Origin: Candidatus Omnitrophota bacterium
GTDB lineage: Bacteria; Omnitrophota; Gorgyraeia; Gygaellales; Profunditerraquicolaceae
NCBI GenBank assembly: GCA_025453445.1
Contig: JALOQJ010000002.1
Location: forward strand, 6,249-70,248
Direction of reading: 5' to 3'
Length of the DNA stretch: 64,000 nucleotides
Under the pieces are notes generated by a model. That model had not been told where the DNA came from. It was given only the letters and a program-made list of their open reading frames with translations, and did no database searches. Below are positions 45,938 to 64,000 of this stretch, piece after piece; positions within the stretch are counted from its first letter, which is position 1; each line of letters opens with the position of its first letter. The position numbers and the translations under genes were made by a program.

Positions 45938-46909
45938 TTACTCCGCCCAAGACATACCGAAAATTGCCTGATTATCGGTGCCGATTCTAATTTGCTGTTT
46001 TGGATTATTTATTGGAGTTACATAAATACCTGCTATGCCATACCAAAGTTCTTTAGCATAAACTAAGTACTTTCCGTCGGGTGACCATCTAACAGGAAAA
46101 GACCCTCCAATACCAATAAGAGCTTTTTTGACAGGAATAATTAACTGGACTGTTTGCCTTGTTTTATCAAAAACATCCATAATATGATACCCGCCTATTC
46201 CTTCAAAAGCTAATTTAGCTCCATCCGGAGACCAAGCTGGCTGCATAGCTAAATCAATGTAATTCTCTATATTACCGGTAGCTATATCAACAACACAAAC
46301 ACCACTCATATTTCTTTCTTCCCTAAGGCCATTGCTTAGATACCTGCTAACTTTATTTTCATAGGTAAAAGCTATTTTTTTACTATCCGGAGACCAACTT
46401 GGCTGATCTTGTTCTGGTCTCATGCTGCTGACACGAGTAATTGCACGAGTATGACGATCGATAACATACAGCCCCTCTTTATTAGTATTTTGCATTATGA
46501 AAGCGATTTTTTTACCATCCGGAGACCAGGAAGGACATACCACGTTTGTTTCTTCACCTAAATCCAAAAACAATTTTACATTTGCGCCGTTTGAGTCCAT
46601 AATAAATAATCTGTTGGCCGAACTTTCATCTCGACTAAAAACTACCATACTGCCGTCAGGTGAAAAATAAGGATCCATTAAACCAAAATTATCTCCTGCA
46701 TTTTTTGAATATACTGTAATGTCTCTTTGTGAAGGTAATTCTATAACTTTAATAGTATGACCACCTAAACCATAAACAATCTCTCCCCGGAGGTCTTTTT
46801 TCATAAAAAAAGAGGTTACTACATCTTTATAAACTAAGAAATAGAAAATAAAATTACCTCCGATAATAAGAACTAAAAAAACAGCTAATATAATTTTTAA
46901 TATTTTCAT
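45938..46909 (-). CDS. TolB-like WD40/PD40 beta-propeller protein with N-terminal TM anchor
   Basis: Repeated [FW]SPDG[SK]x[IL][AV][FY] PD40 motifs (five copies). The start overlaps the end of the giant ORF, with a GGAGG RBS inside its last codons. Confidence 0.7.
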   Translation of the reverse strand: MKILKIILAVFLVLIIGGNFIFYFLVYKDVVTSFFMKKDLRGEIVYGLGGHTIKVIELPSQRDITVYSKNAGDNFGLMDPYFSPDGSMVVFSRDESSANRLFIMDSNGANVKLFLDLGEETNVVCPSWSPDGKKIAFIMQNTNKEGLYVIDRHTRAITRVSSMRPEQDQPSWSPDSKKIAFTYENKVSRYLSNGLREERNMSGVCVVDIATGNIENYIDLAMQPAWSPDGAKLAFEGIGGYHIMDVFDKTRQTVQLIIPVKKALIGIGGSFPVRWSPDGKYLVYAKELWYGIAGIYVTPINNPKQQIRIGTDNQAIFGMSWAE

Positions 46910-46912
46910 CTT

Positions 46913-49900
46913 TTACCTCCCAAAATTTGGCGGCGGCTGATACTTAGGTAGCTGTATCTGTGGCATTGGCTGATATTTTGGCATTGTCATCGGCTGAAAT
47001 TTTGGTAAATCAAATTTCATTGGCGGCGAATAAAAATTCGGCGTCTGAAATACCGGCTGTTGGAATCTCAACTGTTGAAAATCAACACGTGGCATTGAAA
47101 TATACATCGGCTGAGAAAATGGGTGCGTCTCATAATGAGTCCAGATTTGTGTTTCTCTGGTGCGCGTAGATAAATCAGGGTAGCTTATTTTTTGCTGCAT
47201 TTTAAATGAATAATTAAAATACGGATCTGATATAGCCCCGGACATGGAACGAGAAAATGCCATATTCGGCACTAATGGCTGCCATGGTAAATCAGTAATT
47301 GGAGTATTAATACCTATATCTTTAAGAAAACTATTGCGTCCACTATAACAATTTTTCCCTAAGCCGGGGATATTGAACATATTATATGATTCGATCTTAC
47401 CACGATAATTAGCTATATTATCAAAAACTTGCTTTGTGGCTATAGGATCAACTGTCAAGGTCCTATATATAACCAATCCATCCAAGATCTTTTTGTCTAC
47501 TGAATTATATATCCCCTCAGTTGCAATAAGTTTAGAAATATTTTTATCTTTAGGATTAAAATCTATTGTTTTTGTGAAATTATTGTAAGTAACGCTTATA
47601 AAGGTATGATCTTGGCCTGCTATTATAGGGCTATATCCTATTTCTACCCCCATATTTGGCCTAGACAACTCCTTCATCGACCAACCACTAATACGCGTAT
47701 TAGGTATTAATGAATTCTGGATCAAATCCTCTCCAATAAAACCAGCCCGATCAGGAAGATTTCTTAAAGCTGAAGCAAAAACATGTTTAGTAAAAGGATC
47801 CTGTTCCTGCTTCAAAGATTGGGCAAAAGTTTTTGTTAAATCAGGATTACCTGGTAATCTTCCGCCCAAAGACAAAGCTGAGCTTTGACGGATGCCAACA
47901 AAGTTGTCATGAAGGCCGGCAGAAAGTATCGGCATCATTTTAGGTGAATCAATTTTGCCTGCAACATCAATAGCACTCTGGCGCAACAAAGAATTATTGC
48001 TACGAAAATTATTCTCCACAATATTGATTATTTCCGGCGACTTAATTTTATCCAAATAGATAGTAGCGGTTGCCTGAACCATAGGAGTAGGGCCCTGACG
48101 AGCTAACCTTAGAAAAGAATCGCTTATAGCCGGATCTATGCCTACCCTACTATTTGTTACCCGCATTGCTGCTATCTGTAATTCCGGAGCAGAGCTAGAT
48201 AAAAAAGGCCTGCCCATCTCAATCGCCTTCGGGCAACTTGATTGGCTTAATCCTGACAAAATCCCCAACTGAGTATTCAACTCCCTTTCTTTTAACATCC
48301 GGCTAATCGGCTCTTCTAACCTAGGATAATCCCCGATATGTCCTGATAAAATACCTGCCGCTGTAGAAGACACATCCGGAGATGGATCGCTTAATTTCTG
48401 AAATGCTTTATCAAATACGACTGGATTCTCCTTAAACCAACCCGGCACAGGCAATAATGCTGCCTGCCGCACAGCAGGCTCTGGATCATCTAAAGCCCCG
48501 ATAATGATTTCTTTAGCCTGCGGTTCATTAAAATCTGCCAAACCATAAATTACCACAGAACGAACCTCTACATCAGGATCTTTAGCCATCCCTACTAACA
48601 CATCCAATACCTCTTTACCGCCGATTTGCGCCAATGCTACCGCTATCCTTGTCTTAGTTTCTTTTTCTATGCCCGGCTGTTGCAACACATCTTTTAGATG
48701 AGACACTGCCCGCACATCACCTAATTTACCCAAAGCTGTGATTGCCTCGTTGACGATATTTTGATTTTTACTATTCAAAAACGAAACAAACAACTCAAAG
48801 GTACGTGAATCATCCATATTCCCCAGTGCCCAAATAGATACACAACTCAATTTCTCGTCGCTGTCATAGGCTGATTTCATCAGCGCATCTGTTACTTTTA
48901 CTTCGGAGAATTGTCCCAAACGAGACGCCACATAAACTCGCATCTCTGAATTGTAGTTCTTCGCATCAGAAAGAATAGTAATAAGCTGATCTATGCATTC
49001 CGGCTCACCCAGCTCTGCCAAAGCCAATGCGGCATATATAGAGACATATTTTTGTATTTTGTCCTTACTATCCCGCGAATAGTTATTGGCGTATATTGGT
49101 AGTTTATACTGAACTTTTTGCTTCACAATTTCTTCTTGCGATAAAGCAAAGGAAAGAAATCCGGGATTAGATATTTTATATTGGCCCCTAAGGCCAGTAA
49201 TCAGAATATCTCTACCTGCAGGATTACCTGCTAATCCCAGATTCATTGCTGCGTAGAATGAAATTTTAAAATCATCATTCTTTAAGGCCCTTAAGTACCC
49301 TTGAATTAAATCATCTTTTGTAATACCGATTTTTTCATAAAAACTACCCTGAGGATCTAGAAATACCGGGTTGTATGTATTAAATCCTAAAGACGTCTGA
49401 TAATCCACTAACCCTTGTTTAGCTCTTTCATCAAAGGCATTTGATGATGGAAAAATCTCTGGATAGTACTGATAGATAAGACAATATTTAGAGAATGCAG
49501 CCATATAATTTCCTTTACTAATATTTACTTCTGCCAGCCTGCGGCTTTCCAAAGCATCTTCTAACGAGAAACCAATAAAACGGATATACTCATTACTATA
49601 AGTCTGTGTCTTGCTGTTTTTAGCTTTAGCGATAGGCAAATTCTCATAATCGATATCATGCATACACCCACCGGTTGTACTTATAAACCCTATTATCAAT
49701 GCTATTATAACTCCTTTTTGCGTAAATCGGAATAACTTAATTACTTTATTGGCAACGAGTTGCAGAGCTGGCCAAACTTGGCTGATTCCGGAAAATAACC
49801 AAGGGCATATTGAAAATATGATGAGAATTATTGGTGGGGCAAGGCTAAAAATACATTCCCCCACTTGCCCCAAGGCGCCGAAGTTATCCACATTGTAGCG

Positions 49901-52900
49901 GAGGTTTAAACCTCCGCTACATGCGGCAGAGGCGAATGAAGGCAGTAGCGTTGCGCCGATTACCAAACCAAAGCAAGCTACGCCCAGCATTGTGCAAACT
50001 TCGCTGATGCCTTTTTTGCCGCCGCCCCTGTCCGGGCCAGCGCCGGGATTTTGTTGTGTGAATTGTAAAGGCTCAAAAGATTCGGAACGCGGGTCATATT
50101 TTGTTATTTTATTATCGCAGTAATGAAAAAAGGTGGGGAAGTTCCCAAGCGGGAAAGATATCTCCGTTCTTTGCTTTGAGGTAAATTGAGCTAAGTCGTA
50201 TTCTTCAGAAGCAAATACCATAATAAACGACTTATCTCCTCTGGCTCCAGACGTCTGGTAAGTCCCCCTCAATAAACCCAAAGCGCCTAAAGCTTTTTCC
50301 TGCGTGTATGAATCTTTTATAAACGGATAATAGCCAAATACAAAAATTTGCTTATATTTTTCTGTTAATAATTCTGAAAAGTAATAAGGGCGTTGTTTTA
50401 TTAAATCGGCAAAGTTAATAACAAGGGTTTCTTGAGCATCATACCCTTCCTTTATTTTCTCTATATAAAGTTTGGCTACCTCATCAGGGACTCCAGAAAT
50501 GAAAACTGGCATTACATCTGAAATGGCCTTTTGGAAATCAGCGCATTTATGTAAGGCTAATTCTAATTTTTCAGCACTGCTTGACGAAGCGCCCCCGCCC
50601 GCGCCTCCGTCAATATTGTTATTTTGGGACACTTCTGGCATAACAAGGCTTTTAGCATTAGATTTAGTCTTAGGCCAAACTAATCCTATTTCATAGAATA
50701 GTTTTTTCAACTGAGAAGGCATATTCCTTAGAAGATATTTATATCCATTTATTGCGTTCGTAATTTCCAAACTCTCTGTTCCGATTATTTCAAAAGCTAA
50801 TTCTCCAGAGAAAAACTTTGAAATAAATTCTTTAAGTGCATTTTGTGGAGTATCAACTACAGACGATCCGAAAGTAACGCTGAAATATGCCAAAGAAAAT
50901 TTCTGATTTTTATTATTAAGCGCTTGTGTTTGATCTACTAATTGCCTAAATAAATCTTCATGATCTTGAGATGCTAATTCAATATAATCATGCAAAAGCT
51001 CATGACGGATATTTGGTTCTGTAGTTTCTTTCGGAACAACTACTACCCGCTCAAGATGTTTATTGAACTTACCATCAAAATATTCAAATACTCGTAAATA
51101 AAATTCTCTAATCTTTGGTTTATTAGAATTCTCTACACAATGCCTATTCAAATATACGCCCTTAGCCCAGAAAGCGTCCGGAGTATATTTTGATGCTATC
51201 TCCATAATATCCCTGAAGGATTCATCATCCGAAATCACCTCAACGCCCGGGATTATAAATCCATCCCTAATAATTCCCTTGGGGAGAATTGGGGACGTTT
51301 CTATTTTTCCGCCTTGTCGCATTTCCCTATCTTCCGGAATATGCTGAAATAACCGCCTGCCCCCGAACAAATCAAGTAACTTCTGCGACGGATAGACATC
51401 GCCCATTCCCCGCGGCTGGATAGGATTCTTATCTGGCCAACGCATATCAACATAATGCGGATTGCCCTTTTGAAACCCTTTCCCGCCCGCGCCGCCGCCG
51501 CGCGGAAATAGGCCTTCCGCCATTATCGCTGCGAATAATTTTGAGGTTTCAATTGCTGTCTCCAAAATAGAATCTCTGATATACTCTGCGTCCCTGCGGT
51601 ATGTATACACTGACAGGCCGAGTTTCTGCATAATTTCCCTTAACTCTTTCTTAAATTTCGGCCTTTCGCTTAATGACTGGAAACGCCAAAGGTATGCCCG
51701 AAGCAGATAATGGTACGGCGTCTCTGCGTAAGCATTATATATATTCGGACCACGCGTGGCCTTATCGCATACTTGAATTATATGCTCCGCATCCGAGTGG
51801 AAAGCCGATTTTCTTACTGCCGCTATTTTTTGATAAACACGCATCCAGCTCAATACTGCAATTTCGTCCTCTGTAATTTTAGGGATAACAACTTGGCCAA
51901 ATAGGACTTTCGTATCATGCGGTTTCATATACGCGCTTAAACTACCCTTAATATATTCGGGCGCAATATCCACAGGCACAAGATGTATATGAATAGGAAG
52001 ACCCTTGTATTCAAGAGGCACTCGCCATAAGGTTAAACTTCCGTAGGCCTTTCTCATATCTTCTACAACAACATAAGTGTCGTAATCATTAAAAGTATCA
52101 TTTTCCCCAGCGTAAACAGCTGAACCGTATGCGATTATTGCCTGTAAATTTGTTGCGCCAAATAAATCTATAATAGATTGTGTATAACCAAATTTTTTCT
52201 GCTCTTCTGTACTCAATTCTGCCCGGCGGGCTAAAGCAGCTACTCTTGCGCTTCCCGGAAATAACGCCTTCAAATAATCTATTAATTTAAGTTTTATTTC
52301 CATAAGCGCTTCTCTGGGAGAGAAAGAAGAGATATCCAGAAGCTCATCTTTCTCTATTTTTCCTTCAGTTATCAGTAAATTTCTTATTTTTAGATATTTC
52401 TCATATTTCTCCTGCGCCCGGGCTTTGTTAATTTCTTTTTCGTGTATTATCTCATCATCTAGTGGCCCAATTATCCTGTTTATCCCATTTTGTAAATCAA
52501 GTAACTCAAAATCAACCAAAGGTATTCCCGCAACCTCTGCTCCCATCAAACCTGTGGTTGTCCCACTACCTAAGATTTCTTCTGCTTCTCTATAATGAGA
52601 CCGGTCAAAATACCTTAACCACTTTAGCTCATCCACGGACCAAACTGTAAGTTCTATGTCCTTGGGCAACTGCTGCAATTGCGCATCTACAAAAGCCCAC
52701 GTCAAAGGCCCATTGACGATTATGCATTTATGCGTTACATTCTCTATTTTCTTTTTACCTTGCGCTAGTATAGAAACATCTGTATCAACTGGTATTTTAA
52801 GATTAATTGGAAGACTGTCTTTGTGCCGAGCCGAGCTAGTGACCCCACCCCCGCCCGCGGCGCGGACACCATCTTGAGCGTGCGCCGGGCTGCCGGCGGT

Positions 52901-55900: not shown

Positions 55901-58900
55901 CAAAATCGATTCAGGCGTTCCTTTTGGTAAGAAGACTAGATGCAGGTCCGTTATTTTGATAGTGTTCTTAAGTCCAATTTGGTCTGCAATAAATTTATTA
56001 ATACGGTCATGGAAGGCAGGGGTGTACGTCCCTTGAGTTCCTAAATTATTGGGCGAACTTTGTATAATAATGGGGACGGTTCTATTTTTTGCCCGCCAGA
56101 GGAATGTGGCAACTCCCACAAGGGAAAATAATGCGAGGATAGGCAATAGGTATGAAGAGAAAGCGGCTGTCTGCATTTCCTGTCCCGGCGGGGCGAGTGA
56201 GAAAATACATTCCCTAACCTGCCCCAAGAAGGCGCCAAAGTTATCCACATCGTAGCGGAGGTTTAAACCTCCGCTACATACGGCAGAGGCAATCGAAGGC
56301 AGGATTGTTGCGCCGATCGACGCGCCAAGGCAAGCTACGCCCAGCATTGTGCAAACTTCGCCGAGGCCTTTTTCTTTCCCGCCCGCGTTGCCGGCTTGAG
56401 CAACCTCTCTGATATCTTCATCGGTTCTTCTCCTAAAGGAAAAATATTCGAAACTATCCCGAATTACTAATAATTTTTTACTCAGTATTACAAAATCATT
56501 CATTACAGAATTAGTGAAAAAACTCTTTGGTACTTGGTTCCTTATCGTATTCAGTTTTGCTATCGAGCCTTCGCCTTTTGTTTCGACTTTAGGCTTAGCG
56601 TAAAATGTCTCAATATTTTCTTTGCTAGAGAAAATAGCCATTAATTCAGGTTGCCCTGTCAATAGTCGCACAAGTTCCTCAGATTCTGCTTTTAATGCAA
56701 TTAGTTGTTTCCTCTGAGATTTTCCTTTACGATATCCACTAAAAATGTCTTGAAGCGAACATTCAAGAGAAAGTAACTTATTCTCTAAATCGTGCAAGTA
56801 AATATATTCTCTAATAACTTTTTGGGCTTCGTAAGATAGCAATTGGCCTTCTATCTTCTTATTAAAATAAGTTTCAAAAAGCCGATTTTCCATTACAGAA
56901 ATACAGTTATTACAATACGACTGATAGGCATCAAAAGCCTGAAGTAAATCAATCCGTAATAATATATATTCGAGGGCTGCGGGTTCCTTATCTTGAAAAT
57001 ATTTTCTGATTTGATTATAAGCCTGTAGCCTATTCGCTAAATCAAATGGCTGTTCTGTGTTTTGCCTGACTTCGTTCATTACAAGATTCTTTAGTTTCTG
57101 CGGCAGACCGCATTTCCATGCAACCGGCACTTGTTCGGGGATATTTTTAATTTCTATTATTTTCATAATTGCTTGTTTAAAAACTTTTAACCTGCTTCCG
57201 CTCCCTCGCGGCCCTAGGTTACTTTTATAAAACCTCCAGCCCATAAAGCCGCTTCTCCCAAAAGGAAACGCCAACTCCATCGGGTCAAAACTCCTTAGCA
57301 GGTCGCCTTTCGCTGAGAATAACGAACTGTCATTATAACGAACACCGGGGCCTATTTTGCCACCCCCGCCCGCGCCGTTGGCCCGCGAACCGATCAAAGA
57401 GTCATCAGAATAGCCCACCCCATAGAGCGTACAGCCCTTCCAGGGTGCGAAGTCACCCTCTTCTTTCCGATCATCCAGCTCCACGTAATACCGGCGGGAA
57501 CCCTTAGGATCCTCTACCAGATAAACACTTTCCTCAAAACGTTTTGTCTCTGTTGCATCCATCACGGCGAAAAGGGCCTCCCGGATGATGGATGCGGGCA
57601 AAAATGGTGCCGCGTATCCTTTCACAACCACGGCCATGGCTGTGTCGAGATGGCGCAAAAATACTATAGCCCGTTCAGAAGACATTCTCCGGATAATCTC
57701 CAAAATCGCGTCATTCCTTTCTACCTCCGGAGCCAACTCGGCAATCAGTTTCTGCGCAGCCGCGTTACGAAGAACTTCATCCGGACGCGTAATCATCCGC
57801 GTCATGCTCATGATTTGCCTGTTATCAATACTATCGACCTTCATACATTTTTCGATATTCGGCATCTGCTCTTCGAGCCAATCCCGGGGCCAATAAAATC
57901 TCGGAGGAACTGCCAGCCCTTCCCGGAGAAAATCGCGCTGCAGTATCCTTAACTTTTTACCCGCCTCTTCCCGAGCATAACCCATTGCCTGAAGGCGGGC
58001 ATGGATCAATGGCAAATAATACCAAAACATGTTGAAAGCAGTCGTCTCACTTTCGTAAAGATACTTTCCCGCTTCCAAAGCTTCGACGGGATTAATACCT
58101 TCCAAGAAAGAAAGCATAGCCTCGCGGCTCTTTCGTCCGGCCAAAAGCGCGGCAACCGGTGAGGCAATGCAGTGATGCATTAACAAATCCCGCCCCTTTT
58201 CCTTTATAATCAAACCTTTAATTCCAACTAAAACATCGTCAGAGAGAAGAAGAGCCAGACGCAAGTCTCGATCATCAAGGTCAGCGCGATGAACGTCCGC
58301 CAATAAAGACGCGATCTTAGCTTCAGAGAGAATCTTCCGGGCCCGCTCTTCCATCCCGGACAACGACAGCCGCGAGAGAAATGCCGGACGTAAGACGCCC
58401 CAAGGATAGGAACTCTCAGGGAACCCTACCAATTCCACTAATGCAGGATACTGCTGCGCGTAATTAACAACTCCAATCTTTCCGTTTTGTACGGCCCTTC
58501 CAATAATATTATCCACTTCCACTGTAGTCAGATGGCTTGGAACTACCTGCAAGAGATCCCTAGTCAGCTTCTCCAGAGAATCCGCTCGCCCGACGGCGTC
58601 CTCTAACAGTACCAATCCTAAAGAACTCCATCCCGCGCATGTAAGAATCTCCTTAACACTAAAATTATGGTCGCAGAGAAATACATCATTAGGATAAATA
58701 TGATGCGCCTCATGATTGATAATCTGCCACATTAACTCTCCAATGTCATAGAGATGCTCCGTATTAAGGAAGGACGCCCGATAAAGAGGAAGGAATGACG
58801 CGCGATAAAGAAGCTTGAAAAGATGCGCCGGTAGAAGGGCTTCACCCTGAGCGGGCAGGGCAGCGGCCACGATGAATTTATTAGGGCCTTCGTAAGCCAG

Positions 58901-61900
58901 ATACATGTCGCGGGCATCCGGCTCTCTGCCCGAAGGATAATAAAACCGGTATCGTGTCCGGTGCATACTTTCAATTTCTTTCTTCGCATACTCCGGGTTA
59001 GAATAATGATGCTTACGGACATACTGTTCGACCATAGAAAAAATATTCGCAAGCTCGGGATCGCTGGACGCTTCGACAAAACGGCCCGTCTTTAAAAGAC
59101 CTTCGATTGTCCAATTCAATTCCTCTCTGCCATACCCGCGTGAAATGCCTTCGGCGCCCTGATCGCCGCCCCCGCCCGCGCCGCCGTCATCTATAGGCTG
59201 CATCAGGCTGCCTAAATTGACATCTGAATCATTCTTTCCTACTCCTATTGGCTGTAATAATATCGAGCGAGGCTGTCTAAATACGCAGGCATAAGCAAAC
59301 TGAACAGGATTAAAATGGTTTAAATAATAACCGACGAGCAACAATATGATGATACCAATTTCTACTTGACTTAGGGGCAAGCATAGTATATTCTTAAATG
59401 AAGGGAGGAAATATATGCATAAGAAACAATATATGGTGATTATTGAAAGGGACGAGGACGGTATGCTGGTAGGTACTGTTCCCAGCCTGAAAGGGTGCCA
59501 TAGCCAAGCTAAGAATATGCCAACTTTACTTGAACGAATTAAAGAGGCGATCCAGCTCTGCTTAGAGGTAGAAAATCCTAAAATTCCGTCTTTAGAATTT
59601 GTCGGGCTGCAAGAAGTTGAAGTTAATTGATGTCGAGGCTCACTCCCCTTAGGCCAACCGAAGCCATCCGCATTTTGACCCACTTGGGTTTTGAACGTAT
59701 CCGCCAAAAAGGCAGCCACATTTATTTTCGCCATCCTGACGGCCGCTCTACGGTAGTACCTTTTCACAAAGGCGAAGACTTGAGCAAAGGCCTTTTGAGC
59801 GCAATCCTTAGGGATATTGAGTTGCCGTGGGACGAATTTATTGCCGCTAAGTGAGTTCCTACAAACCCTGCAAGCCACCCAAATAAAAATCGTAACAGGT
59901 AAAATTAAAATCGCCGGATAAGCGAGCCTGTAAATATACTCTCCAACTTGCCCCAAGGCGCCGAAGTTATCCACATTGTAGCGGAGGTTTAAACCTCCGC
60001 TACATGCGGCAGAGGCAAATAAAGGCAGGATTGTTACGCCGATTACAAGAGCAAAACAAATTAAACCCAACATTGTGCAAACTTCGCCGATGCCTTTTTT
60101 GGCGCCCCCGCCCGAATTCTTTAACATTGGTCCCACGGCGCTATCTTTGACGAATCTTTCAAAATATCTAGTGAAATCAAAAATTCCTGATTTTGAAAGC
60201 GCTTCGGTAATACTGGTTTTAAAAATATTCCCTACTACCGCATATTTATTTCCCTTGGGAATCATAATATCTCCGCGAAAATCTACAAGAACACAGGTAC
60301 TTCTTTCGTCTGATTTTAGGCATGCTATTTTTAATCTACCAACGTATGGCAAATTAAAAAGACTCTGGGTAACTTCCTGAAAATCCTGGTCGCTGACAAA
60401 ATAGTCATTTGCAATAGCAGAAGTCGCTACTCTCCCAGCAGTAACATATTGCCTTATGCCCCACTCGGCGACACCCGCATCGGCAAGCTGTCGACCCAAC
60501 AAAGGCAAATCAGCTATATTCTTTTTTGTAGCCACAGTAGATACAGCTAATACAAATTTACGCCTGATTAATCTTGAGAATAGTTTCCAAACATTTCTGT
60601 ATTGCGCCCTAGATCTCTCTCCTCTTACAGCAACGTGGACATCTTCAGTAGAGCCTTCTATTGGGATAGACAATGTATCAAGATAAAGTTCAAGTTTATC
60701 AATTATATTTTCATCTAACAGATCACCAGAAATCTGCAGACAAACTAAAATTCTCTGCTCATAAATATATTTTATTATTTCAATAATATCGGGGATCAAC
60801 AAAGCGTCTCCTCCGGTGATAACCATAGACCTGATCCCTTGTTCCTTTAATTTATCTATAATGCGCTTTGCTTCTTCAAAAGTAATTTCTCTTTTGGAGC
60901 ACGAAGCTTTTCTCCGGAAACAAATCGGACAGTTCACTTCACAGGAATCAGTGGCATAAAATGCTATATGAATAATTTTCGGATTCTGTTGGTGCAGTTT
61001 TCCTATCTGCCCCCCGCCCGCGCCGCGGAGGTTTTTGTCAAACACTGGTCTGCTGTAGCCGGAAAGCAACTTGACATTTATCGTTGGAGGTGGTATGGTT
61101 ATATTGTGAGGTGAAAAACTATGAATAAAAATGCCCGGGAAGCCAAAAAACATTTGCAAAGACTGCGCAAACTTACTGCCAACACTCCATCCCCTTTCAA
61201 AGGGATGACTCTTGAAGAGGCAATCACGAAGATGCGAAAAGTTAGGGAACAGTTGTGGGAGGAAAAGCTTGCATTTCGTCCTTGATACAAATGAATTTGT
61301 GGGCGCGATAGGGTTAGTCAGGAACCCACCTTCGGAAATCCTTTTTAATATTCTCATAGAATCATCACCGCGGCATACCATCCATGTCCCCCGGCTGATA
61401 ATTAACGAAGTAAAACGCAATATTCCTCCTAATATTTTCACGGAATTCATAAAGATTGTCATACCGATTGTTATTATTGACGAAGATATCTTTGTGCCTT
61501 TTGAGATAGGCATAAAATATGAATCTGCCGGCCTAAAACCCGCGGACGCATTTATCGCCGCATACGCCGAATGGACGGGCGCTGAAGTATTAGCGACTGA
61601 AAACAGGCATTTTCTCTCCCGGCAAACCAATCTTCCTTTTAAGGTCATGAATGCCGAACACTGTCTTAAAATTTTAGGCAAATAATACCAAACCTTACCA
61701 ATCTTTCTTGACATCCACCATATTCCCTTTATTAGCTTATACACCGGCCCGGTAGGAAAATTGTAGAGAACAGACCCGCCCCCGCCCGCGCCGCCGCGTG
61801 GAGTTTTACTCTGCAATGCTTCATAAACATCAATCGCCTTTATGCCTAATTCTTTCCCTGCCTGAAAATCAGTAAACCTTCCGTTTATAACACTCATCCC

Positions 61901-63970
61901 TTCTGCGAATCCTGCGTCCCTATAAACAGCTCCTTCTGTTCCATACAACATCAAAAGCTCCAAATAAGGAAGCATCGCTATTTCAAGCATGGTTGAAGCC
62001 AAATGAGCAATTTTACCCGGTTGAGCAGGCATATTTGGTATCAAGTAGAAAATCGACTCTCCATAACCGACTCTTACCGGTTTATCATAAGAAGTTACTT
62101 TTTCATCTAACCCAACAACCACAGTTTTATCCGGCCTGACAAATTCAAAATTTCCACCGGCGTTAATCGCTACATCCACAAATACGCGGCGCTTGGGAGA
62201 TCTATCACTTATTTCTATAATTAATTCTTTATTGATGGTAACGGGCGCTTTCCTGCCGGGAAGTGATGCCGCTCCGACAACTGCGTCAGCCTTTATCAGG
62301 GCATCTTTTATCTTCCGCTGCTGGGAATCCGAGAGAACCTCTAATCTGCCGCTAGCTATTTCTTCCCTAAATATCTCCCGGATATCATCCAAGTTTTCGG
62401 ATAGATCAGTAAGCGTAACCGTAGCGCCCAAGAAAAACGCTGCTCCACAGGCAGCCAAACCAACGGTGCCTGCTCCGGTAATCAACAGGTGTTTTCCTTT
62501 AAGGTTTTCATCATCCAGAGAATAACTATAATGCATAATGTTAATGTGTAAAATCCCTTCCCTGCGCTTAACATCCCCTATAACATCACTGCCGGAAACT
62601 CTCTCTTCGTTCTCATTCAGATAAATCAACGCCTGAAAAACTGCCTCAATACCGGAAACAATATTCATTGCGTCTAAACAGACGCGGGTTTTCCCCTTGC
62701 GCACTTTTATTCGGCTGATCCAGTGAGGAATAATATTAAGCCCCCAAGAATCCATAAAATTTGGATTAAATAATAAGCAGGTATGCGCGTCTGCCTCAAT
62801 TTCCTCTAAGGCAAGGCAGCTTACTTTTGACTTGAGGATCTTTTCAGTCATCTCTTTATCAGAAGCAAAATTAAAATAACTAGCCAGGATTTTACCTGCC
62901 CCAAGATAGGCTAATTCATTATCCATAGGTGCATTGACTTTTAAAATTATAACTTCTTTGCCCTCTTCAACTGCTCCTTCTCCTATCTTATCCAACTGTT
63001 CCCTGTCTGCTGCTATTTTCGCTCCGAGCCTTTCATAATAATCATCATTTATCCCGCTTAAGGATCCGGCCTTAGACTCAACATAAATTTCCAATTTGAT
63101 ATTTTTTTCTTTAGCAAATTTCAGAAGTTTATCCACAGCAAGAGACAGCCCGACCCTTCCTTCATTAGGCCTAATTTCCCGCGGCACAAGAATTACTGTG
63201 CCGGTTTTTTTAACAGTTTCAAAAGTGGGTACGAGTAATTTACGGCTACCGGAAGAAATCAATCTTTCTAACTGGCTGGGGGTGCCGTCTTTCTTTTTTG
63301 TCACTATTGCGCCAAGTGTCCTGCATTCCTCAATTATTCTAAGAAGAGTTCGAAGGCAAGCCTCAGGCAAATCTTTCCGCGAAACATCCTGTGCAGTAAC
63401 AAAAGATTCTCGCCGCCATAAATGCGCACCATACGTCCCAGCTACTTTAAAAAGCCCCTGCAAATTTTCTCCTAGTATAGAGATAACTTCTCGGTTAAGA
63501 TGGTTGCCGGCAATACAAAAAAGAATATCCCACTGAATCTTGCCAACAGGAGCGGGTAATCTTAATACATGAAAGCCCCATCCCGTCTCATTATTAAATG
63601 GCGCTAAGGCTTCTAAAATCGGCCTTAAGAATTCCGCTTCTTCTAATGAAGGCGCTTTGCCAATTGAAAGCAAGTGCGGACGGCCGGTAGAATCAAGCCC
63701 GGTTACTACCGGGTCATCAGCTGCTATACAAATAGATATACCGGATATATTTGAAGGCCCTTCCTTTGCCACCAACTGGCCCGGAGCATCTACTTTCACT
63801 ATAGCTTTACCCGGTGGGCCTGCCGGCTTGCCCGCGCCCGCGCTGGCGGGATTTTCCCGCGCCGAGCTGTTTGAGGTTTCGGAATTAGCCGGCTCCGGTA
63901 GTAAACACTGTTGTGTATCTCCTAATAGATCTTCATCCTTTATAATATCGATATGGTCAAAATCTATCAT
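46913..63970 (-). CDS. giant 5,685-codon open reading frame. A modular polyprotein-like fusion of ~13 unrelated cassettes joined by GGAGGG-encoding GC-rich motifs. The N-terminus is still open at the window edge.
   Basis: No stop codon for 17,058 nt on the minus strand, and the frame remains open to nt 64000. Module order N-to-C (higher to lower coordinates): unknown N-terminal region + AlaDH/PNT-like Rossmann domain (LLITGAGTVGLAACG); antisense of the PIN toxin-antitoxin cassette; radical SAM domain (CEVNCPIC, GGDALL); TM-anchor repeat; antisense of the hicBA cassette; unknown; unknown; TM repeat; unknown; TM repeat + extra TMs; mini-module; NTase-like (GS...DYD); HExxH (HELLH); unknown; TM repeat + HEAT repeats + Pro/Gln-rich tail. 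Whether it is translated as one product is not established. Confidence 0.5.
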   Translation of the reverse strand: MIDFDHIDIIKDEDLLGDTQQCLLPEPANSETSNSSARENPASAGAGKPAGPPGKAIVKVDAPGQLVAKEGPSNISGISICIAADDPVVTGLDSTGRPHLLSIGKAPSLEEAEFLRPILEALAPFNNETGWGFHVLRLPAPVGKIQWDILFCIAGNHLNREVISILGENLQGLFKVAGTYGAHLWRRESFVTAQDVSRKDLPEACLRTLLRIIEECRTLGAIVTKKKDGTPSQLERLISSGSRKLLVPTFETVKKTGTVILVPREIRPNEGRVGLSLAVDKLLKFAKEKNIKLEIYVESKAGSLSGINDDYYERLGAKIAADREQLDKIGEGAVEEGKEVIILKVNAPMDNELAYLGAGKILASYFNFASDKEMTEKILKSKVSCLALEEIEADAHTCLLFNPNFMDSWGLNIIPHWISRIKVRKGKTRVCLDAMNIVSGIEAVFQALIYLNENEERVSGSDVIGDVKRREGILHINIMHYSYSLDDENLKGKHLLITGAGTVGLAACGAAFFLGATVTLTDLSENLDDIREIFREEIASGRLEVLSDSQQRKIKDALIKADAVVGAASLPGRKAPVTINKELIIEISDRSPKRRVFVDVAINAGGNFEFVRPDKTVVVGLDEKVTSYDKPVRVGYGESIFYLIPNMPAQPGKIAHLASTMLEIAMLPYLELLMLYGTEGAVYRDAGFAEGMSVINGRFTDFQAGKELGIKAIDVYEALQSKTPRGGAGGGGSVLYNFPTGPVYKLIKGIWWMSRKIGKVWYYLPKILRQCSAFMTLKGRLVCRERKCLFSVANTSAPVHSAYAAINASAGFRPADSYFMPISKGTKISSSIITIGMTIFMNSVKILGGILRFTSLIISRGTWMVCRGDDSMRILKRISEGGFLTNPIAPTNSFVSRTKCKLFLPQLFPNFSHLRDCLFKSHPFERGWSVGSKFAQSLQMFFGFPGIFIHSFSPHNITIPPPTINVKLLSGYSRPVFDKNLRGAGGGQIGKLHQQNPKIIHIAFYATDSCEVNCPICFRRKASCSKREITFEEAKRIIDKLKEQGIRSMVITGGDALLIPDIIEIIKYIYEQRILVCLQISGDLLDENIIDKLELYLDTLSIPIEGSTEDVHVAVRGERSRAQYRNVWKLFSRLIRRKFVLAVSTVATKKNIADLPLLGRQLADAGVAEWGIRQYVTAGRVATSAIANDYFVSDQDFQEVTQSLFNLPYVGRLKIACLKSDERSTCVLVDFRGDIMIPKGNKYAVVGNIFKTSITEALSKSGIFDFTRYFERFVKDSAVGPMLKNSGGGAKKGIGEVCTMLGLICFALVIGVTILPLFASAACSGGLNLRYNVDNFGALGQVGEYIYRLAYPAILILPVTIFIWVACRVCRNSLSGNKFVPRQLNIPKDCAQKAFAQVFAFVKRYYRRAAVRMAKINVAAFLADTFKTQVGQNADGFGWPKGSEPRHQLTSTSCSPTNSKDGILGFSTSKQSWIASLIRSSKVGIFLAWLWHPFRLGTVPTSIPSSSLSIITIYCFLCIYFLPSFKNILCLPLSQVEIGIIILLLVGYYLNHFNPVQFAYACVFRQPRSILLQPIGVGKNDSDVNLGSLMQPIDDGGAGGGGDQGAEGISRGYGREELNWTIEGLLKTGRFVEASSDPELANIFSMVEQYVRKHHYSNPEYAKKEIESMHRTRYRFYYPSGREPDARDMYLAYEGPNKFIVAAALPAQGEALLPAHLFKLLYRASFLPLYRASFLNTEHLYDIGELMWQIINHEAHHIYPNDVFLCDHNFSVKEILTCAGWSSLGLVLLEDAVGRADSLEKLTRDLLQVVPSHLTTVEVDNIIGRAVQNGKIGVVNYAQQYPALVELVGFPESSYPWGVLRPAFLSRLSLSGMEERARKILSEAKIASLLADVHRADLDDRDLRLALLLSDDVLVGIKGLIIKEKGRDLLMHHCIASPVAALLAGRKSREAMLSFLEGINPVEALEAGKYLYESETTAFNMFWYYLPLIHARLQAMGYAREEAGKKLRILQRDFLREGLAVPPRFYWPRDWLEEQMPNIEKCMKVDSIDNRQIMSMTRMITRPDEVLRNAAAQKLIAELAPEVERNDAILEIIRRMSSERAIVFLRHLDTAMAVVVKGYAAPFLPASIIREALFAVMDATETKRFEESVYLVEDPKGSRRYYVELDDRKEEGDFAPWKGCTLYGVGYSDDSLIGSRANGAGGGGKIGPGVRYNDSSLFSAKGDLLRSFDPMELAFPFGRSGFMGWRFYKSNLGPRGSGSRLKVFKQAIMKIIEIKNIPEQVPVAWKCGLPQKLKNLVMNEVRQNTEQPFDLANRLQAYNQIRKYFQDKEPAALEYILLRIDLLQAFDAYQSYCNNCISVMENRLFETYFNKKIEGQLLSYEAQKVIREYIYLHDLENKLLSLECSLQDIFSGYRKGKSQRKQLIALKAESEELVRLLTGQPELMAIFSSKENIETFYAKPKVETKGEGSIAKLNTIRNQVPKSFFTNSVMNDFVILSKKLLVIRDSFEYFSFRRRTDEDIREVAQAGNAGGKEKGLGEVCTMLGVACLGASIGATILPSIASAVCSGGLNLRYDVDNFGAFLGQVRECIFSLAPPGQEMQTAAFSSYLLPILALFSLVGVATFLWRAKNRTVPIIIQSSPNNLGTQGTYTPAFHDRINKFIADQIGLKNTIKITDLHLVFLPKGTPESILLKLAAIENLMTRTYPPFMERHNLVLLEGDEMHPYYIIKDGDEYVLAHAGTAGRLEENIYMTRQLFEVLSVETLAVILEEEGYHAGDRNTARHHDEIPVSEKYHPEWHRQILQIVEQEIKNSSRFHSPEAVRREKHLLKEGKKHYLERITSINEDQRWTSNKGEQEKRMQELLNEILCHKNDQDAAIKQMVSVFNETGLSKEVLVKKLQYAITIKNDNDRRWYRQYLLEKWQRLLVWKKKYAVMRCQKAAEIKIEGDTVKLIAAQQDGRFDYPGGGLFQITVSGAQNVPLYVAEDHQLLLPVVKILQRQNKLGNRLIVLNNDFHDDTGATVMPDYKTGIPLRPSLETVMRYAEKTMHEGGIFTALVRENDLSELFWIPSLRSLFGRFVYFNKSSPVLKVAYEEHVSTHRGPRGPGVGIPFDAKTAKGYYLVSYDSPVKRIRKTANMTFNIVPENGLNALIWPQDNGQYVLSLDLDAFNEMPAYRFEEEIQNFMQILQGLSFRFSAVFICRSSSYMVYQQSKVFANEILNCMVAMLNKYDILQKSTGTKNKRGGAGGGAKKGIGEVCTMLGLICFALVIGATILPSFASAACSGGLNLRYDVDNSGALAQIKECIFSFAPPEVIVIILLVIAILYFLDAKNKLSAVSCDMPGYNPNEYPQSSIRAFNIKHHSSGALENKQPYPSGKIERHFQKIRVGNKLRLCQDKIASIYKAEKERRVSFRWVVYLVSIATLSCPGILFYFVLDDRKAASGLGVASTLVLFWAVAAIYYIINVLKFKRSYKEQKIGLGKIRQDYEAIEDCSHFFQKREIRPYVNKTLDVAIVPYRLISRIIVEEGPVEKQLSGENRHFEFWFHSCAGKQEVDVEILDFDGHEEKLFVRDILKGEDGVSFNPVEARGYTEETIQESAPFIIKFVGGCISIENHAVYSLTLEYLVSGGGAGGNRDRINQDMHYKDIPSLGGFDGITWPELMGREFPLGGNILDFRLAHHRNMGALGKKRGRGETAGSPAHAQDGVRAAGGGGVTSSARHKDSLPINLKIPVDTDVSILAQGKKKIENVTHKCIIVNGPLTWAFVDAQLQQLPKDIELTVWSVDELKWLRYFDRSHYREAEEILGSGTTTGLMGAEVAGIPLVDFELLDLQNGINRIIGPLDDEIIHEKEINKARAQEKYEKYLKIRNLLITEGKIEKDELLDISSFSPREALMEIKLKLIDYLKALFPGSARVAALARRAELSTEEQKKFGYTQSIIDLFGATNLQAIIAYGSAVYAGENDTFNDYDTYVVVEDMRKAYGSLTLWRVPLEYKGLPIHIHLVPVDIAPEYIKGSLSAYMKPHDTKVLFGQVVIPKITEDEIAVLSWMRVYQKIAAVRKSAFHSDAEHIIQVCDKATRGPNIYNAYAETPYHYLLRAYLWRFQSLSERPKFKKELREIMQKLGLSVYTYRRDAEYIRDSILETAIETSKLFAAIMAEGLFPRGGGAGGKGFQKGNPHYVDMRWPDKNPIQPRGMGDVYPSQKLLDLFGGRRLFQHIPEDREMRQGGKIETSPILPKGIIRDGFIIPGVEVISDDESFRDIMEIASKYTPDAFWAKGVYLNRHCVENSNKPKIREFYLRVFEYFDGKFNKHLERVVVVPKETTEPNIRHELLHDYIELASQDHEDLFRQLVDQTQALNNKNQKFSLAYFSVTFGSSVVDTPQNALKEFISKFFSGELAFEIIGTESLEITNAINGYKYLLRNMPSQLKKLFYEIGLVWPKTKSNAKSLVMPEVSQNNNIDGGAGGGASSSSAEKLELALHKCADFQKAISDVMPVFISGVPDEVAKLYIEKIKEGYDAQETLVINFADLIKQRPYYFSELLTEKYKQIFVFGYYPFIKDSYTQEKALGALGLLRGTYQTSGARGDKSFIMVFASEEYDLAQFTSKQRTEISFPLGNFPTFFHYCDNKITKYDPRSESFEPLQFTQQNPGAGPDRGGGKKGISEVCTMLGVACFGLVIGATLLPSFASAACSGGLNLRYNVDNFGALGQVGECIFSLAPPIILIIFSICPWLFSGISQVWPALQLVANKVIKLFRFTQKGVIIALIIGFISTTGGCMHDIDYENLPIAKAKNSKTQTYSNEYIRFIGFSLEDALESRRLAEVNISKGNYMAAFSKYCLIYQYYPEIFPSSNAFDERAKQGLVDYQTSLGFNTYNPVFLDPQGSFYEKIGITKDDLIQGYLRALKNDDFKISFYAAMNLGLAGNPAGRDILITGLRGQYKISNPGFLSFALSQEEIVKQKVQYKLPIYANNYSRDSKDKIQKYVSIYAALALAELGEPECIDQLITILSDAKNYNSEMRVYVASRLGQFSEVKVTDALMKSAYDSDEKLSCVSIWALGNMDDSRTFELFVSFLNSKNQNIVNEAITALGKLGDVRAVSHLKDVLQQPGIEKETKTRIAVALAQIGGKEVLDVLVGMAKDPDVEVRSVVIYGLADFNEPQAKEIIIGALDDPEPAVRQAALLPVPGWFKENPVVFDKAFQKLSDPSPDVSSTAAGILSGHIGDYPRLEEPISRMLKERELNTQLGILSGLSQSSCPKAIEMGRPFLSSSAPELQIAAMRVTNSRVGIDPAISDSFLRLARQGPTPMVQATATIYLDKIKSPEIINIVENNFRSNNSLLRQSAIDVAGKIDSPKMMPILSAGLHDNFVGIRQSSALSLGGRLPGNPDLTKTFAQSLKQEQDPFTKHVFASALRNLPDRAGFIGEDLIQNSLIPNTRISGWSMKELSRPNMGVEIGYSPIIAGQDHTFISVTYNNFTKTIDFNPKDKNISKLIATEGIYNSVDKKILDGLVIYRTLTVDPIATKQVFDNIANYRGKIESYNMFNIPGLGKNCYSGRNSFLKDIGINTPITDLPWQPLVPNMAFSRSMSGAISDPYFNYSFKMQQKISYPDLSTRTRETQIWTHYETHPFSQPMYISMPRVDFQQLRFQQPVFQTPNFYSPPMKFDLPKFQPMTMPKYQPMPQIQLPKYQPPPNFGR
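49850..50046 (-). repeat. TM-anchor/linker repeat copy 4 (~190 bp), containing a 26-bp perfect palindrome at 49895-49920 and a degenerate linker motif at 50018-50046
   Basis: Encodes GAGPDRGGGKKGISEVCTMLGVACFGLVIGATLLPSFASAACSGGLNLRYNVDNFGALGQVGECIFSLAPP. More than 85% nucleotide identity to copies 1-3. Confidence 0.85.
50591..50607 (-). repeat. linker motif copy (CCCCCGCCCGCGCCTCC), encodes DGGAGGGAS
   Basis: GC island in AT-rich DNA. Same orientation and frame as the other copies. Confidence 0.8.
51482..51505 (-). repeat. linker motif copy (CCCGCCCGCGCCGCCGCCGCGCGG), encodes PRGGGAGGKG
   Basis: As above. Confidence 0.8.
52848..52865 (-). repeat. linker motif copy (CCCCCGCCCGCGGCGCGG), encodes RAAGGGGV
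   Basis: As above. Confidence 0.8.
53086..53104 (-). repeat. degenerate linker motif copy (CCACCAGCACCGCCGCCAG), encodes SGGGAGGN
   Basis: The protein-level linker is conserved while the DNA is more diverged. It bounds a ~70-aa mini-module between this copy and the one at 52848. Confidence 0.6.
54063..54252 (-). repeat. TM-anchor/linker repeat copy 3, containing a palindrome at 54106-54131 and a full linker motif at 54234-54252
   Basis: Encodes KRGGAGGGAKKGIGEVCTMLGLICFALVIGATILPSFASAACSGGLNLRYDVDNSGALAQIKECIFSFAPP. Confidence 0.85.
56205..56386 (-). repeat. TM-anchor/linker repeat copy 2, containing a palindrome at 56252-56277 and a partial motif at 56377-56386
   Basis: Encodes AGNAGGKEKGLGEVCTMLGVACLGASIGATILPSIASAVCSGGLNLRYDVDNFGAFLGQVRECIFSLAPP. 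Confidence 0.85.
57363..57377 (-). repeat. linker motif copy (CCCCCGCCCGCGCCG), encodes ANGAGGGGK
   Basis: As above. Confidence 0.8.
59169..59185 (-). repeat. linker motif copy (CCCCCGCCCGCGCCGCC), encodes DDGGAGGGGDQ
   Basis: As above. Forms the boundary of the inverted hicBA cassette. Confidence 0.8.
59415..59630 (+). CDS. hicB: HicB-family antitoxin (UPF0150)
   Basis: MHKKQYMVIIERDEDGMLVGTVPSLKGCHSQAKNMPTLLERIKEAIQLCLE is the canonical HicB N-domain. GAAGGGAGG RBS and a TTGACT-type promoter upstream. Encoded antisense within the giant ORF. Confidence 0.8.
   Translation: MHKKQYMVIIERDEDGMLVGTVPSLKGCHSQAKNMPTLLERIKEAIQLCLEVENPKIPSLEFVGLQEVEVN
59627..59854 (+). CDS. hicA: HicA-family mRNA interferase toxin
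   Basis: LTHLGFERIRQKGSHIYFRHPDGRSTVVPFHKGEDLSKGLLSAILRDIEL is the YcfA/HicA fold signature. 4-nt overlap with hicB. Confidence 0.8.
   Translation: MMSRLTPLRPTEAIRILTHLGFERIRQKGSHIYFRHPDGRSTVVPFHKGEDLSKGLLSAILRDIELPWDEFIAAK
59932..60114 (-). repeat. TM-anchor/linker repeat copy 1, containing a palindrome at 59978-60003. The linker motif is truncated after CCCCCGCCCG, followed by GAATTC, at 60105-60114.
   Basis: Encodes NSGGGAKKGIGEVCTMLGLICFALVIGVTILPLFASAACSGGLNLRYNVDNFGALGQVGE, then runs into the antisense of hicA. Confidence 0.85.
61021..61036 (-). repeat. linker motif copy (CCCCCGCCCGCGCCGC), encodes LRGAGGGQIG. The radical SAM module begins immediately after it.
   Basis: As above. Confidence 0.8.
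61120..61286 (+). CDS. small putative antitoxin partner of the PIN toxin
   Basis: ATG preceded by GAGGTG RBS. A TTGACA-17-TATGGT promoter lies ~40 nt upstream. 54 aa, basic and helical (MNKNAREAKKHLQRLRKL...). The stop overlaps the PIN ORF. Antitoxin role inferred from gene order only. Confidence 0.45.
61267..61685 (+). CDS. vapC: PIN-domain toxin (VapC-like)
   Basis: HFVLDTNEFV ... IDEDIF ... ADAFIAAYAEWTGAEVLATENRHF are the PIN acidic-residue motifs. The track ORF starts at 61212 (TTG), but a start near LHFVLD is more likely. Antisense within the giant ORF. Confidence 0.75.
61779..61796 (-). repeat. linker motif copy (CCCCCGCCCGCGCCGCCG), encodes PRGGAGGGGSV
   Basis: As above. Forms the boundary between the AlaDH-like module and the inverted PIN cassette. 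Confidence 0.8.
63831..63850 (-). repeat. degenerate linker motif copy (CCCGCGCCCGCGCTGGCGGG), encodes SAGAGKPAGP
   Basis: The N-most copy, ~40 codons into the track ORF. Confidence 0.5.
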
Positions 63971-64000
63971 AGAAAAACCATCAAGGTCCTTCCTGTTTAT

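Follow-up and report, generated by a model that had tools for sequence, protein, structure and literature searches.

A giant multi-module gene of an Omnitrophota bacterium with a nucleotide-conserved junction, a repeated membrane element and stop-free antisense toxin-antitoxin operons

We analysed a stretch of 64,000 nt from the genome of a Candidatus Omnitrophota bacterium (contig JALOQJ010000002.1; the whole stretch is called the window here), the minus strand of which carries a stop-free frame of 5,685 codons (46913..63970). Judged from its sequence, this frame probably belongs to the gene of a giant, inner-membrane-anchored, multi-enzyme polyprotein of the Archaeovorin or 'multi-enzyme metabolic cluster' type. 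At least 13 mutually unrelated units follow one another in frame, joined by a junction of about 20 nt composed of G and C only. The open reading frame (ORF) would be translated continuously from end to end, with putative membrane hairpins tethering the cofactor-dependent modules (NAD, S-adenosylmethionine (SAM)/Fe-S, NTP) to the cytoplasmic face and with the terminal HEAT array lying outside the membrane. Two kinds of cut, either or both of which may occur, are predicted for the polyprotein: one made by signal peptidase I at A-S-A/A (the slash marks the cut), the other made by a C39-type peptidase at the Gly-Gly junctions. The junction may double as a DNA or RNA element, acting in recombination-mediated gain and loss of modules or in translational pausing, and toxin-antitoxin (TA) operons situated between direct repeats may, by analogy with chromosomal integrons, penalise deletions. 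A fuller proposal, in which modules are swapped at the junction, the product is cut internally and the TA operons have been recoded and guard the array, is put forward tentatively. Gain or loss of modules at the junction is read from a second Omnitrophota protein, in which the same junctions flank different modules.

The first-pass annotation had started the ORF at the ATG at 63970. This start does not hold, as 10 further codons are open between that ATG and the window edge, where the ORF leaves the window (46913..64000, 5,685 + 10 codons), and the JGI contig Ga0392394_0000319, 99.995% identical to the window across 20,972 nt, bears a gene call of 9,533 aa for the giant, with its start some 35 nt short of the contig end. 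An identical product of the downstream PD40 gene is present on the same contig. Counted from the C-terminus, the window covers roughly 60% of the gene, the length of which is at least 9,533 codons. The MnmG protein of the window gave its best matches, at 64-70% identity, to metagenome-assembled genomes (MAGs) of Candidatus Omnitrophota, and the GC content of the window is 42%.

A nucleotide-conserved junction between unrelated units

Runs of Gly and Ala divide the protein into 13 pieces, S1 to S13 (Table 1). The 12 junctions encode (R)GGAGGG and share the nucleotide motif CGGCGGCGCGGGCGGGGG, a likeness that goes beyond that of the peptide; their consensus is CGGCGGCGCGGGCGGGGGNG, with no conservation in the flanks. 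The core GCGCGGGCGGGG, with at most one mismatch allowed, occurred nine times against 0.14 expected, and all nine matches lie in the ORF, on the minus strand. The codons GCG-GGC-GGG were identical in 10 of the 12 junctions, and 48 of the 53 junction Gly codons were GGC or GGG, as compared to 57% in the other genes of the window. Since conservation was seen at the nucleotide level, a role of the junction in DNA or RNA is suggested. Because a degenerate junction lies at 63818-63850, the first 40 or so visible residues appear to be the tail of an upstream module that is not seen in the window.

Cutting the protein at the GGAGGG sites, the check proposed in the first-pass annotation, gave pieces that coincide with homology boundaries in Pfam and other family models and in the HMMER search. 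In S1, S3, S10, S11 and S12, the distance from the end of homology to the next linker was 1 to 13 residues: the alaDH model stops at 719 of the 725 residues of S1 and pVip at 285 of the 298 of S3, and the alignments of homologues end at 444 of 448 (S10), about 290 of 291 (S11) and 180 of 185 (S12). The modules were found mutually unrelated apart from four membrane repeats. No ATG, GTG or TTG was found within three codons after each junction, few junctions having been checked across the 5-10-nt start window. Internal translation starts after the junctions were rejected, as no start codon stood in the codons read there.

Antisense operons and a repeated membrane element

A codon-usage scan, trained on 34 other genes, found the giant frame to carry coding signal throughout, save in S2 and the second part of S4, across which the plus strand scored best. 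Two of the 13 pieces, S2 and most of S4, are not protein modules, contrary to the first-pass description, and are the antisense of two complete TA operons. The toxin gene within S2, probably starting at the TTG at 61269, matched the Pfam PIN family (E 1.2e-5; 26.3 bits, the cut-off being 23.6; 2-114 of the 120 model positions), and the 54-aa candidate antitoxin before it had no family match. In S4, the HicB-like antitoxin matched Pfam HicB_lk_antitox at 27.4 bits (cut-off 27) and the toxin matched HicA_toxin at 72.2 bits (E 3.9e-20). By its domain pair, the overlap of its genes and their shared promoter-like site, this operon is a type II TA operon of the HicAB kind. Both operons possess well-placed sigma-70-like promoters and strong Shine-Dalgarno sequences; as the overall counts of the promoter and terminator scan were not above those of shuffled sequences, the evidence drawn from it is confined to these single sites, which by their placement are consistent with expression of the operons. 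Junction 1, read on the plus strand (61786-61801), folds into a GC hairpin with a T-rich stretch behind it, about 100 nt past the PIN stop. This terminator-like junction could double as the terminator of the antisense TA transcript, terminator-like sites overall being no more frequent than in shuffles.

The giant frame traverses both operons and their promoter regions without a stop, over about 250 and 230 codons, or about 480 in all. In control genes, none of about 6,200 antisense windows of 250 codons per frame was open. When the protein sequences of the TA genes were kept fixed and their synonymous codons were redrawn from the codon usage of the genome, the probability that all four genes would be stop-free in the giant frame was 6e-6, and that for HicA alone was 0.0044. 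The peptides read through S2 and S4 contain about 1% Glu, as compared to 6.8% elsewhere, and an excess of Cys, Trp, Phe and Ser, a composition that resembles sequence not under selection. The simplest reading of these sequences is purifying selection against stops, by which ribosomes must cross the S2 and S4 stretches to reach the downstream modules. Continuous translation of the ORF is suggested because nothing would otherwise keep about 480 junk codons open. Inversion of TA cassettes was rejected, as all junctions lie in one orientation and no inverted repeats flank the operons. An intein or intron reading of S2 and S4 was likewise rejected, the sequence having neither intein end motifs nor a match to an Rfam family.

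A repeat of about 200 nt heads S4, S7, S8 and S13, each time directly after a junction, with a DNA identity of 68-91% among copies. It encodes KK, a hydrophobic helix of about 20 residues, P-x-x-A-S-A/A, a loop of about 30 residues and a second hydrophobic helix. All four copies, as well as MCU0652608.1, a protein of an Omnitrophota MAG, keep the features of a signal peptide (KK, h-region, Pro at -6 and A-x-A), and A-S-A/A would fit the pattern of signal peptidase I by the -3/-1 rule. A search with the repeat element alone as the query gave no homologues. The hydropathy scan found 11 hydrophobic 19-mers past the threshold in coding parts (the S4 hairpin, S7, S8 and S13) and four conserved two-helix hairpins; four more segments that passed were set aside, three of them lying in the junk frames of S2 and S4 and one being the NAD-binding motif of S1. 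The enzyme modules and the HEAT array would be separated by the membrane. The array is placed outside because the number of helices in S13 is odd, the third ending in the lipobox-like ISTTGGC. HEAT in Omnitrophota giants is predicted to be extracellular (West-Roberts et al. 2023, bioRxiv 10.1101/2023.11.21.568195).

Each copy of the repeat contains the perfect 28-nt palindrome TGTAGCGGAGGTTTAAACCTCCGCTACA, which was found in four exact copies against 0 expected and was absent elsewhere, and the fold of the repeat element is more stable than those of shuffled sequences (z -3.8). In the palindrome, which stands in the coding region right behind the signal-peptide helix, a perfect Shine-Dalgarno sequence, GGAGGU, is paired with ACCUCC, which mimics the 3' end of 16S. 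The palindrome may act as a translational pause site or as a protein-binding site. A mobile element was considered, and no matches of the palindrome were found in viral contigs. Small plus-strand ORFs (MRQRQ[M/I]KAGLLRRLQEQNKLNPTLCKLRRC...) start at an ATG abutting each palindrome, e.g. 54133-54384 and 60004-60150. They are conserved solely through the conservation of the repeat DNA, and the one copy scanned (60075-60380) had no family match.

Modules, their homologues and the genomic setting

The module inventory of the first-pass annotation was upheld. An AlaDH/PNT-like two-domain dehydrogenase had been proposed for S1, and both Pfam domains scored above their cut-offs (AlaDh_PNT_N, aa 262-399, E 4.5e-20; AlaDh_PNT_C, aa 494-700, E 1.6e-25; together window 61871-63187), along with a GxGxxG motif. 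Against the NCBIfam alaDH equivalog S1 scored E 5e-39 and 134 bits, below the cut-off of 392. Going by these matches, S1 is assigned to the alanine dehydrogenase/PNT family and to no specific enzyme in it. The complete small radical SAM enzyme expected in S3 was likewise found, with a Radical_SAM call by Pfam and a PADLOC pVip match (E 5.7e-19 for each), the CxxxCxxC motif and an end-to-end alignment to the NCBIfam viperin model that runs over positions 3-279 of 281 and scores 52.7 bits, where the cut-off is 180. By these scores, S3 is viperin-like in size and fold class and is not a confirmed viperin. The PBS-lyase-type HEAT array of S13 was matched by HEAT_2 (E 2.7e-44) and HEAT_PBS (E 1.1e-17). 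No homologues of S13 were found in GTDB genomes.

The Pol-beta-type nucleotidyltransferase (NTase) motif noticed in S10 was upheld by homologues and by fold. S10 had no Pfam match; its family was found by an exhaustive HMMER search. In an alignment of 16 family sequences, Y239, G240, D253 and D255 of the motif at 52064-52132 were invariant, and at this motif the family profile gave weak matches to chains of ANT and NTase proteins (E 0.09-0.3). The AlphaFold (AF2) model of S10 had a predicted local distance difference test score (pLDDT) of 84 and a predicted template modelling score (pTM) of 0.83, and 18 of its 20 top Foldseek matches in PDB were NTase-fold proteins, with weak E-values of 0.017-0.05; the top matches were Tam41, ANT(4'), AadA (probability 0.97), MNT and CCA-adding enzyme. 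The invariant GS...DxD residues and the fold support the call, and the NTase fold predicted by the model is accepted. In S11, described in the first-pass annotation as an HExxH-containing, metalloprotease-like module, H160, E161, H164 and D165 were invariant across 16 family sequences of 21-34% identity. The motif thus stood, and metalloprotease-like holds at the level of the motif alone, as S11 had no significant sequence or structural match to any peptidase, fold searches of PDB and BFVD being uninformative. Its model (pLDDT 75.5) places the motif on a helix directly after a strand and predicts the first 56 residues to be disordered.

The remaining modules had been said to carry no recognisable motifs, and no Pfam, NCBIfam or PDB sequence match was obtained for S5 to S9, nor any match to PDB sequences for S5 to S12. 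Homologue searches found none for S5 and S6, and S7 and S8 matched MCU0652608.1 only, through the repeat. A second HExxH (NHEAHH; INHEAHHIY), which the first-pass annotation did not list, is present in S5 at 58694-58717.

Table 1. Features of the giant gene and of the operons antisense to it (window coordinates)
Feature	Position	Strand	Description
S1	61796..63970	minus	Unknown N-terminal domain, then complete two-domain AlaDH/PNT-like dehydrogenase
S1 subfeatures	N domain 62774-63187; C domain 61871-62491; GxGxxG 62456-62482	minus	GxGxxG intact
S2	61025..61774	minus	250-codon stop-free read-through of antisense PIN-type TA operon; no giant-frame coding signal
Candidate antitoxin, 54 aa	61121..61285	plus	TTGACA-17-TG-TATGGT at 61071-61099; Shine-Dalgarno-like GAGGTGA 6 nt before ATG
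PIN-domain toxin, VapC-like	61269..61685	plus	TTG 61269 after GGGAGGA; 17-nt overlap with antitoxin
S3	60116..61009	minus	Complete small radical SAM enzyme; CxxxCxxC at 60920-60943
Rest of S4	59186..59880	minus	Stop-free read-through of antisense HicBA operon and promoter region
HicB-like antitoxin, 71 aa	59415..59630	plus	TTGACT-17-TATTCT at 59366-59394; Shine-Dalgarno AGGGAGGA 5 nt before ATG
HicA toxin, 75 aa	59627..59854	plus	Start overlaps HicB stop
S5	57377..59164	minus	596-aa orphan module; highest GC content at third codon positions (GC3), 0.51
S6	56393..57358	minus	322-aa orphan module
S7	54251..56377	minus	Membrane hairpin, then orphan module of ~640 aa
S8	53102..54229	minus	Membrane hairpin, second pair of hydrophobic helices, orphan domain
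S9	52862..53080	minus	73-aa piece between two junctions; no matches
S10	51500..52843	minus	Pol-beta-superfamily NTase-fold module; ANT/AadA-like two-domain core with N-terminal extension
S11	50609..51481	minus	HExxHD family, fold undefined; HExxH at 50984-51007
S12	50033..50587	minus	Conserved 185-aa domain
S13	46916..50017	minus	Membrane hairpin and third helix, HEAT/PBS-lyase array, unknown domain, P/Q-rich tail
S13 subfeatures	Lipobox-like ISTTGGC 49658-49684; HEAT/PBS array ~47741-49258; P/Q-rich tail from ~47080	minus	
Degenerate junction	63818-63850	minus	PASAGAGKPAG, GCGCGGGCGCGG; 40 codons into visible ORF
Junction 1	61775..61795	minus	R-GGAGGGG; GGC GGC GCG GGC GGG GGC GGG
Junctions 2-6	61010-61024, 60101-60112, 59165-59185, 57359-57376, 56378-56389	minus	
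Junctions 7-12	54230-54250, 53084-53101, 52844-52861, 51482-51499, 50588-50608, 50018-50026	minus	
Copies of ~200-nt repeat	59914..60114, 56188-56388, 54043-54243, 49831-50031	minus	
Perfect 28-nt palindrome	59977..60004, 56252-56278, 54107-54133, 49894-49921		Encodes CSGGLNLRY

Free-standing homologues were found for two of the modules. Those of S10 are complete proteins of 420-443 aa, one of them annotated from start codon to stop codon on a contig of 137 kb, and those of S11 have 214-301 aa. One S10 homologue lies on an archaeal-looking contig (SAMP2, ThiF) and another on a bacterial contig; of the S11 homologues, one has class-I LysRS and PCNA as neighbours and another has AbiEi/AbiEii and an integrase. 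PvlArgDC is also among the archaeal hallmarks of the contigs with free-standing S10 or S11 homologues. Omnitrophota relatives prey on archaea, and an exchange of modules with archaea or mobile elements is raised for S10 and S11. The first-pass annotation had seen in the gene an operon's worth of accessory cassettes fused in frame, and had proposed free-standing homologues as a check. The fusion of independent units is borne out by the ends of homology at the junctions, by the complete stand-alone genes of S10 and S11, by the presence of both families in other Omnitrophota giants and by the conservation of the junction as DNA; a fused operon was rejected, as these homologues are unlinked and stand in unrelated contexts.

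Members of the S10, S11 and S12 families are also embedded in other large proteins. The S12 family was seen solely inside multi-domain proteins of 624-3,917 aa, and the two sources looked up are Omnitrophota giants (MGB2705810.1 and MFC1548488.1); a looked-up giant of the same phylum, MCX5710361.1, carries an S11-type domain. The sole protein found to share the repeat element was MCU0652608.1, a partial 1,396-aa 'GNAT' protein. It possesses GGAGG, GGAGS, GGAGR and GNAGK junctions and a signal-peptide element of 92% identity over 37 aa, and its other modules are unrelated to those of the giant. MCU0652608.1 could be part of the unseen upstream region of the giant.

Within 25 kb of the gene are two T2SSE genes, T2SSF, PilM and secretin genes of type II secretion system (T2SS)/pilus type, three GH2-type genes, an ABC sugar importer and an MFS transporter (MFS_2). 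The T2SS/type IV pilus cluster occupies window 21499-33095 and comprises the secretin, PilM, T2SSF, an MshEN protein and the two T2SSE ATPases. It encloses a 1,368-aa protein with GGDEF, AAA_16 and HEAT domains (25670-29776), and a gene for a PilZ protein lies at 44797-45549, near the giant gene. The GGDEF protein inside the cluster and the PilZ protein suggest cyclic di-GMP control of the T2SS/pilus apparatus beside the giant gene. A gene for a PD40/Tricorn-like beta-propeller (45938-46909) begins 3 nt past the giant stop codon (46909-46913) and is probably co-transcribed or translationally coupled with the giant ORF. Its three diverged 39-nt direct repeats at 46205-46537 are ordinary beta-propeller repeats.

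Class membership, alternative explanations and significance

The combination of oxidoreductase, radical SAM, NTase and metalloprotease-like units in a single polypeptide had been called an architecture that is not known. It is in fact that of a class described in Omnitrophota, with matching T2SS/pilus, GH2 and sugar-import neighbours, in which unrelated enzyme domains (radical SAM, oxidoreductases, NUDIX, methyltransferases and glycolytic enzymes) alternate with HEAT scaffolding and many transmembrane helices in one huge chain. By the refutation criterion of the first-pass annotation itself, the claim of an unknown architecture is refuted. In the 'Archaeovorins' HEAT is the commonest domain, accompanied by many unrelated enzymes, radical SAM included, and by many transmembrane (TM) helices; the genes are found near T2SS and carbohydrate-import genes, and C39 double-glycine peptidase domains at the N-termini of the giants are proposed to cleave them (West-Roberts et al. 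2023, bioRxiv 10.1101/2023.11.21.568195). A statement in the same preprint, citing Kizina et al. 2022, has a related species of Omnitrophota express its giant gene at the protein level. In the 'multi-enzyme metabolic cluster' class radical SAM occurs in 90 long proteins, with oxidoreductase and HEAT modules, and the giants are modelled as membrane-threaded single chains (Nielsen & Lui 2026, bioRxiv 10.64898/2026.06.07.730766). Gigantic multi-domain proteins of this kind were also noted by Burroughs et al.

The present gene matches this Omnitrophota multi-enzyme ('Archaeovorin'-type) class, as judged from its host, neighbourhood and domains. The phylum is the same, unrelated enzymes occur with HEAT and recurrent TM helices in one ORF, the greater part of the sequence has no annotation, T2SS/pilus, GH2 and carbohydrate-import genes are neighbours, and domains of the S11 and S12 types are present in other giants. 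The gene differs in its shorter called length (at least 9,533 aa), in having no SecA_DEAD or C39/S8 domain in its available part, and in its DNA-conserved GGAGGG junction, its hairpin/palindrome repeat and its stop-free antisense TA operons. Term searches of the papers by West-Roberts et al. and by Nielsen & Lui found no description of a DNA-conserved junction, of the repeat or palindrome, or of antisense TA read-through. The module inventory is ordinary for the phylum; the junction, the repeat and the TA read-through are new with respect to these two papers.

Three other systems resemble the gene in part. MARTX toxins are likewise very long single polypeptides with variable, unrelated effector or enzyme modules, exchange by recombination and proteolysis between modules. 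However, Pfam found neither RTX repeats nor a CPD protease in the 5,685 aa, the present modules look cytoplasmic, depend on cofactors and are anchored by TM hairpins, and the junction motif is another. In polyproteins of the flavivirus type the host signal peptidase cuts at internal signal sequences, and internal helices of signal-peptide type with A-x-A between the units of one translation product are shared with the present gene, which in contrast is bacterial and chromosomal, with predicted cleavage and with most junctions devoid of a signal sequence. In sedentary chromosomal integrons type II TA cassettes with their own promoters stabilise arrays against deletion. Here, too, TA operons with their own promoters stand in a repeat-bounded array of unrelated cassettes, but they lie inside and antisense to a continuous recoded ORF, and neither IntI nor attC was found: no integrase was seen among the window ORFs scanned, which were not all of them, and the junctions are a direct, non-palindromic 20-mer that is not attC-like. 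On these features of the junctions and of the ORFs scanned, the gene does not conform to an integron cassette array, nor, on the Pfam results, to the MARTX family.

Several points weigh against the reading of the gene as a cleaved giant polyprotein of the Archaeovorin type. We infer both continuous translation and cleavage from the sequence. The 9,533 aa of the gene call, which the true length may exceed, fall below the thresholds of 10,000 aa (Nielsen & Lui) and 30,000 aa (West-Roberts et al.), and no C39, S8 peptidase or SecA_DEAD domain was found in the C-terminal 5,685 aa, the N-terminal 3,850 or so lying outside the window. No conserved double-glycine leader pattern precedes the junctions. 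A recent foreign origin of the modules was not shown by composition, as the excess of heterogeneity is modest (standard deviation of GC3 0.065 among modules versus 0.049 among ordinary genes). Two other Omnitrophota multi-module genes with S11- or S12-type domains had no repeated junction, repeat element or obvious antisense TA genes, and the three features appear to be lineage-restricted because they are missing from these two.

The product might instead be one unprocessed scaffold, in which the junctions are flexible tethers, the hairpins are anchors, the nucleotide identity comes from duplication or from a codon or GC preference, and the TA operons are tolerated insertions. We consider this rather unlikely. 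Gly-rich linkers between domains are commonplace, the models of S10 and S11 are disordered at the ends next to junctions, the window holds no protease domain and the junctions no conserved leader, and the published giants are modelled as single chains threaded through the membrane. Such a scaffold is difficult to square, however, with a 20-nt motif of 100% G+C using the same codons at 10 of 12 sites between unrelated flanks in a genome of 42% GC, with an A-x-A and a Pro at -6 that no copy lacks, not even the one in another protein, and with about 480 junk residues containing hydrophobic stretches, which would be costly unless removed.

Less likely still is an integron- or shufflon-like array of cassettes mobilised by a recombinase at the 20-nt junction or the 28-nt palindrome, of which only in-frame, stop-free forms survive. 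No integrase or recombinase was seen among the ORFs scanned, which did not include every ORF of the window, the junctions all point one way and lack the imperfect inverted repeat of attC, and the sole other assembly, being 99.995% identical, offers no variation by which mobility could be seen. This is so even though the same junction and repeat flank wholly different modules in MCU0652608.1, TA cassettes in opposite orientation are typical of large cassette arrays, the palindrome is perfectly kept in all four copies and a free-standing S11 homologue lies beside an integrase and AbiE. That there is no single product at all, and that separate genes and TA operons only seem fused through faulty assembly or gene calling, or are a decaying pseudogene, is very improbable. 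S2 and most of S4 are without a coding signal in the giant frame and most modules are without any homologue, as such an artefact would have it; but 5,695 codons are stop-free in DNA of 42% GC, coding signal in that frame is clear for the other 11 pieces, synonymous recoding keeps the TA genes open in it (P 6e-6), no in-frame start codons follow the junctions that were read, two assemblies agree, and a related Omnitrophota giant is expressed at the protein level, as stated in bioRxiv 10.1101/2023.11.21.568195 from Kizina et al. 2022.

Giant genes of this class are thought to serve a host-dependent or predatory lifestyle. The 12 junctions and the four signal-peptidase-like sites bear on two open questions raised by West-Roberts et al., whether such ORFs are translated whole and where their products are cut. 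The stop-free recoding of the antisense TA operons amounts to a natural experiment and is an unusual constraint of dual-strand coding. Use of the junction as a recombination site, if true, would explain the mosaic assembly of the gene. If the polyprotein reading holds, the gene would provide the first concrete module boundaries and candidate cleavage points for the giants of Omnitrophota, together with an internal genetic proof of their end-to-end translation.

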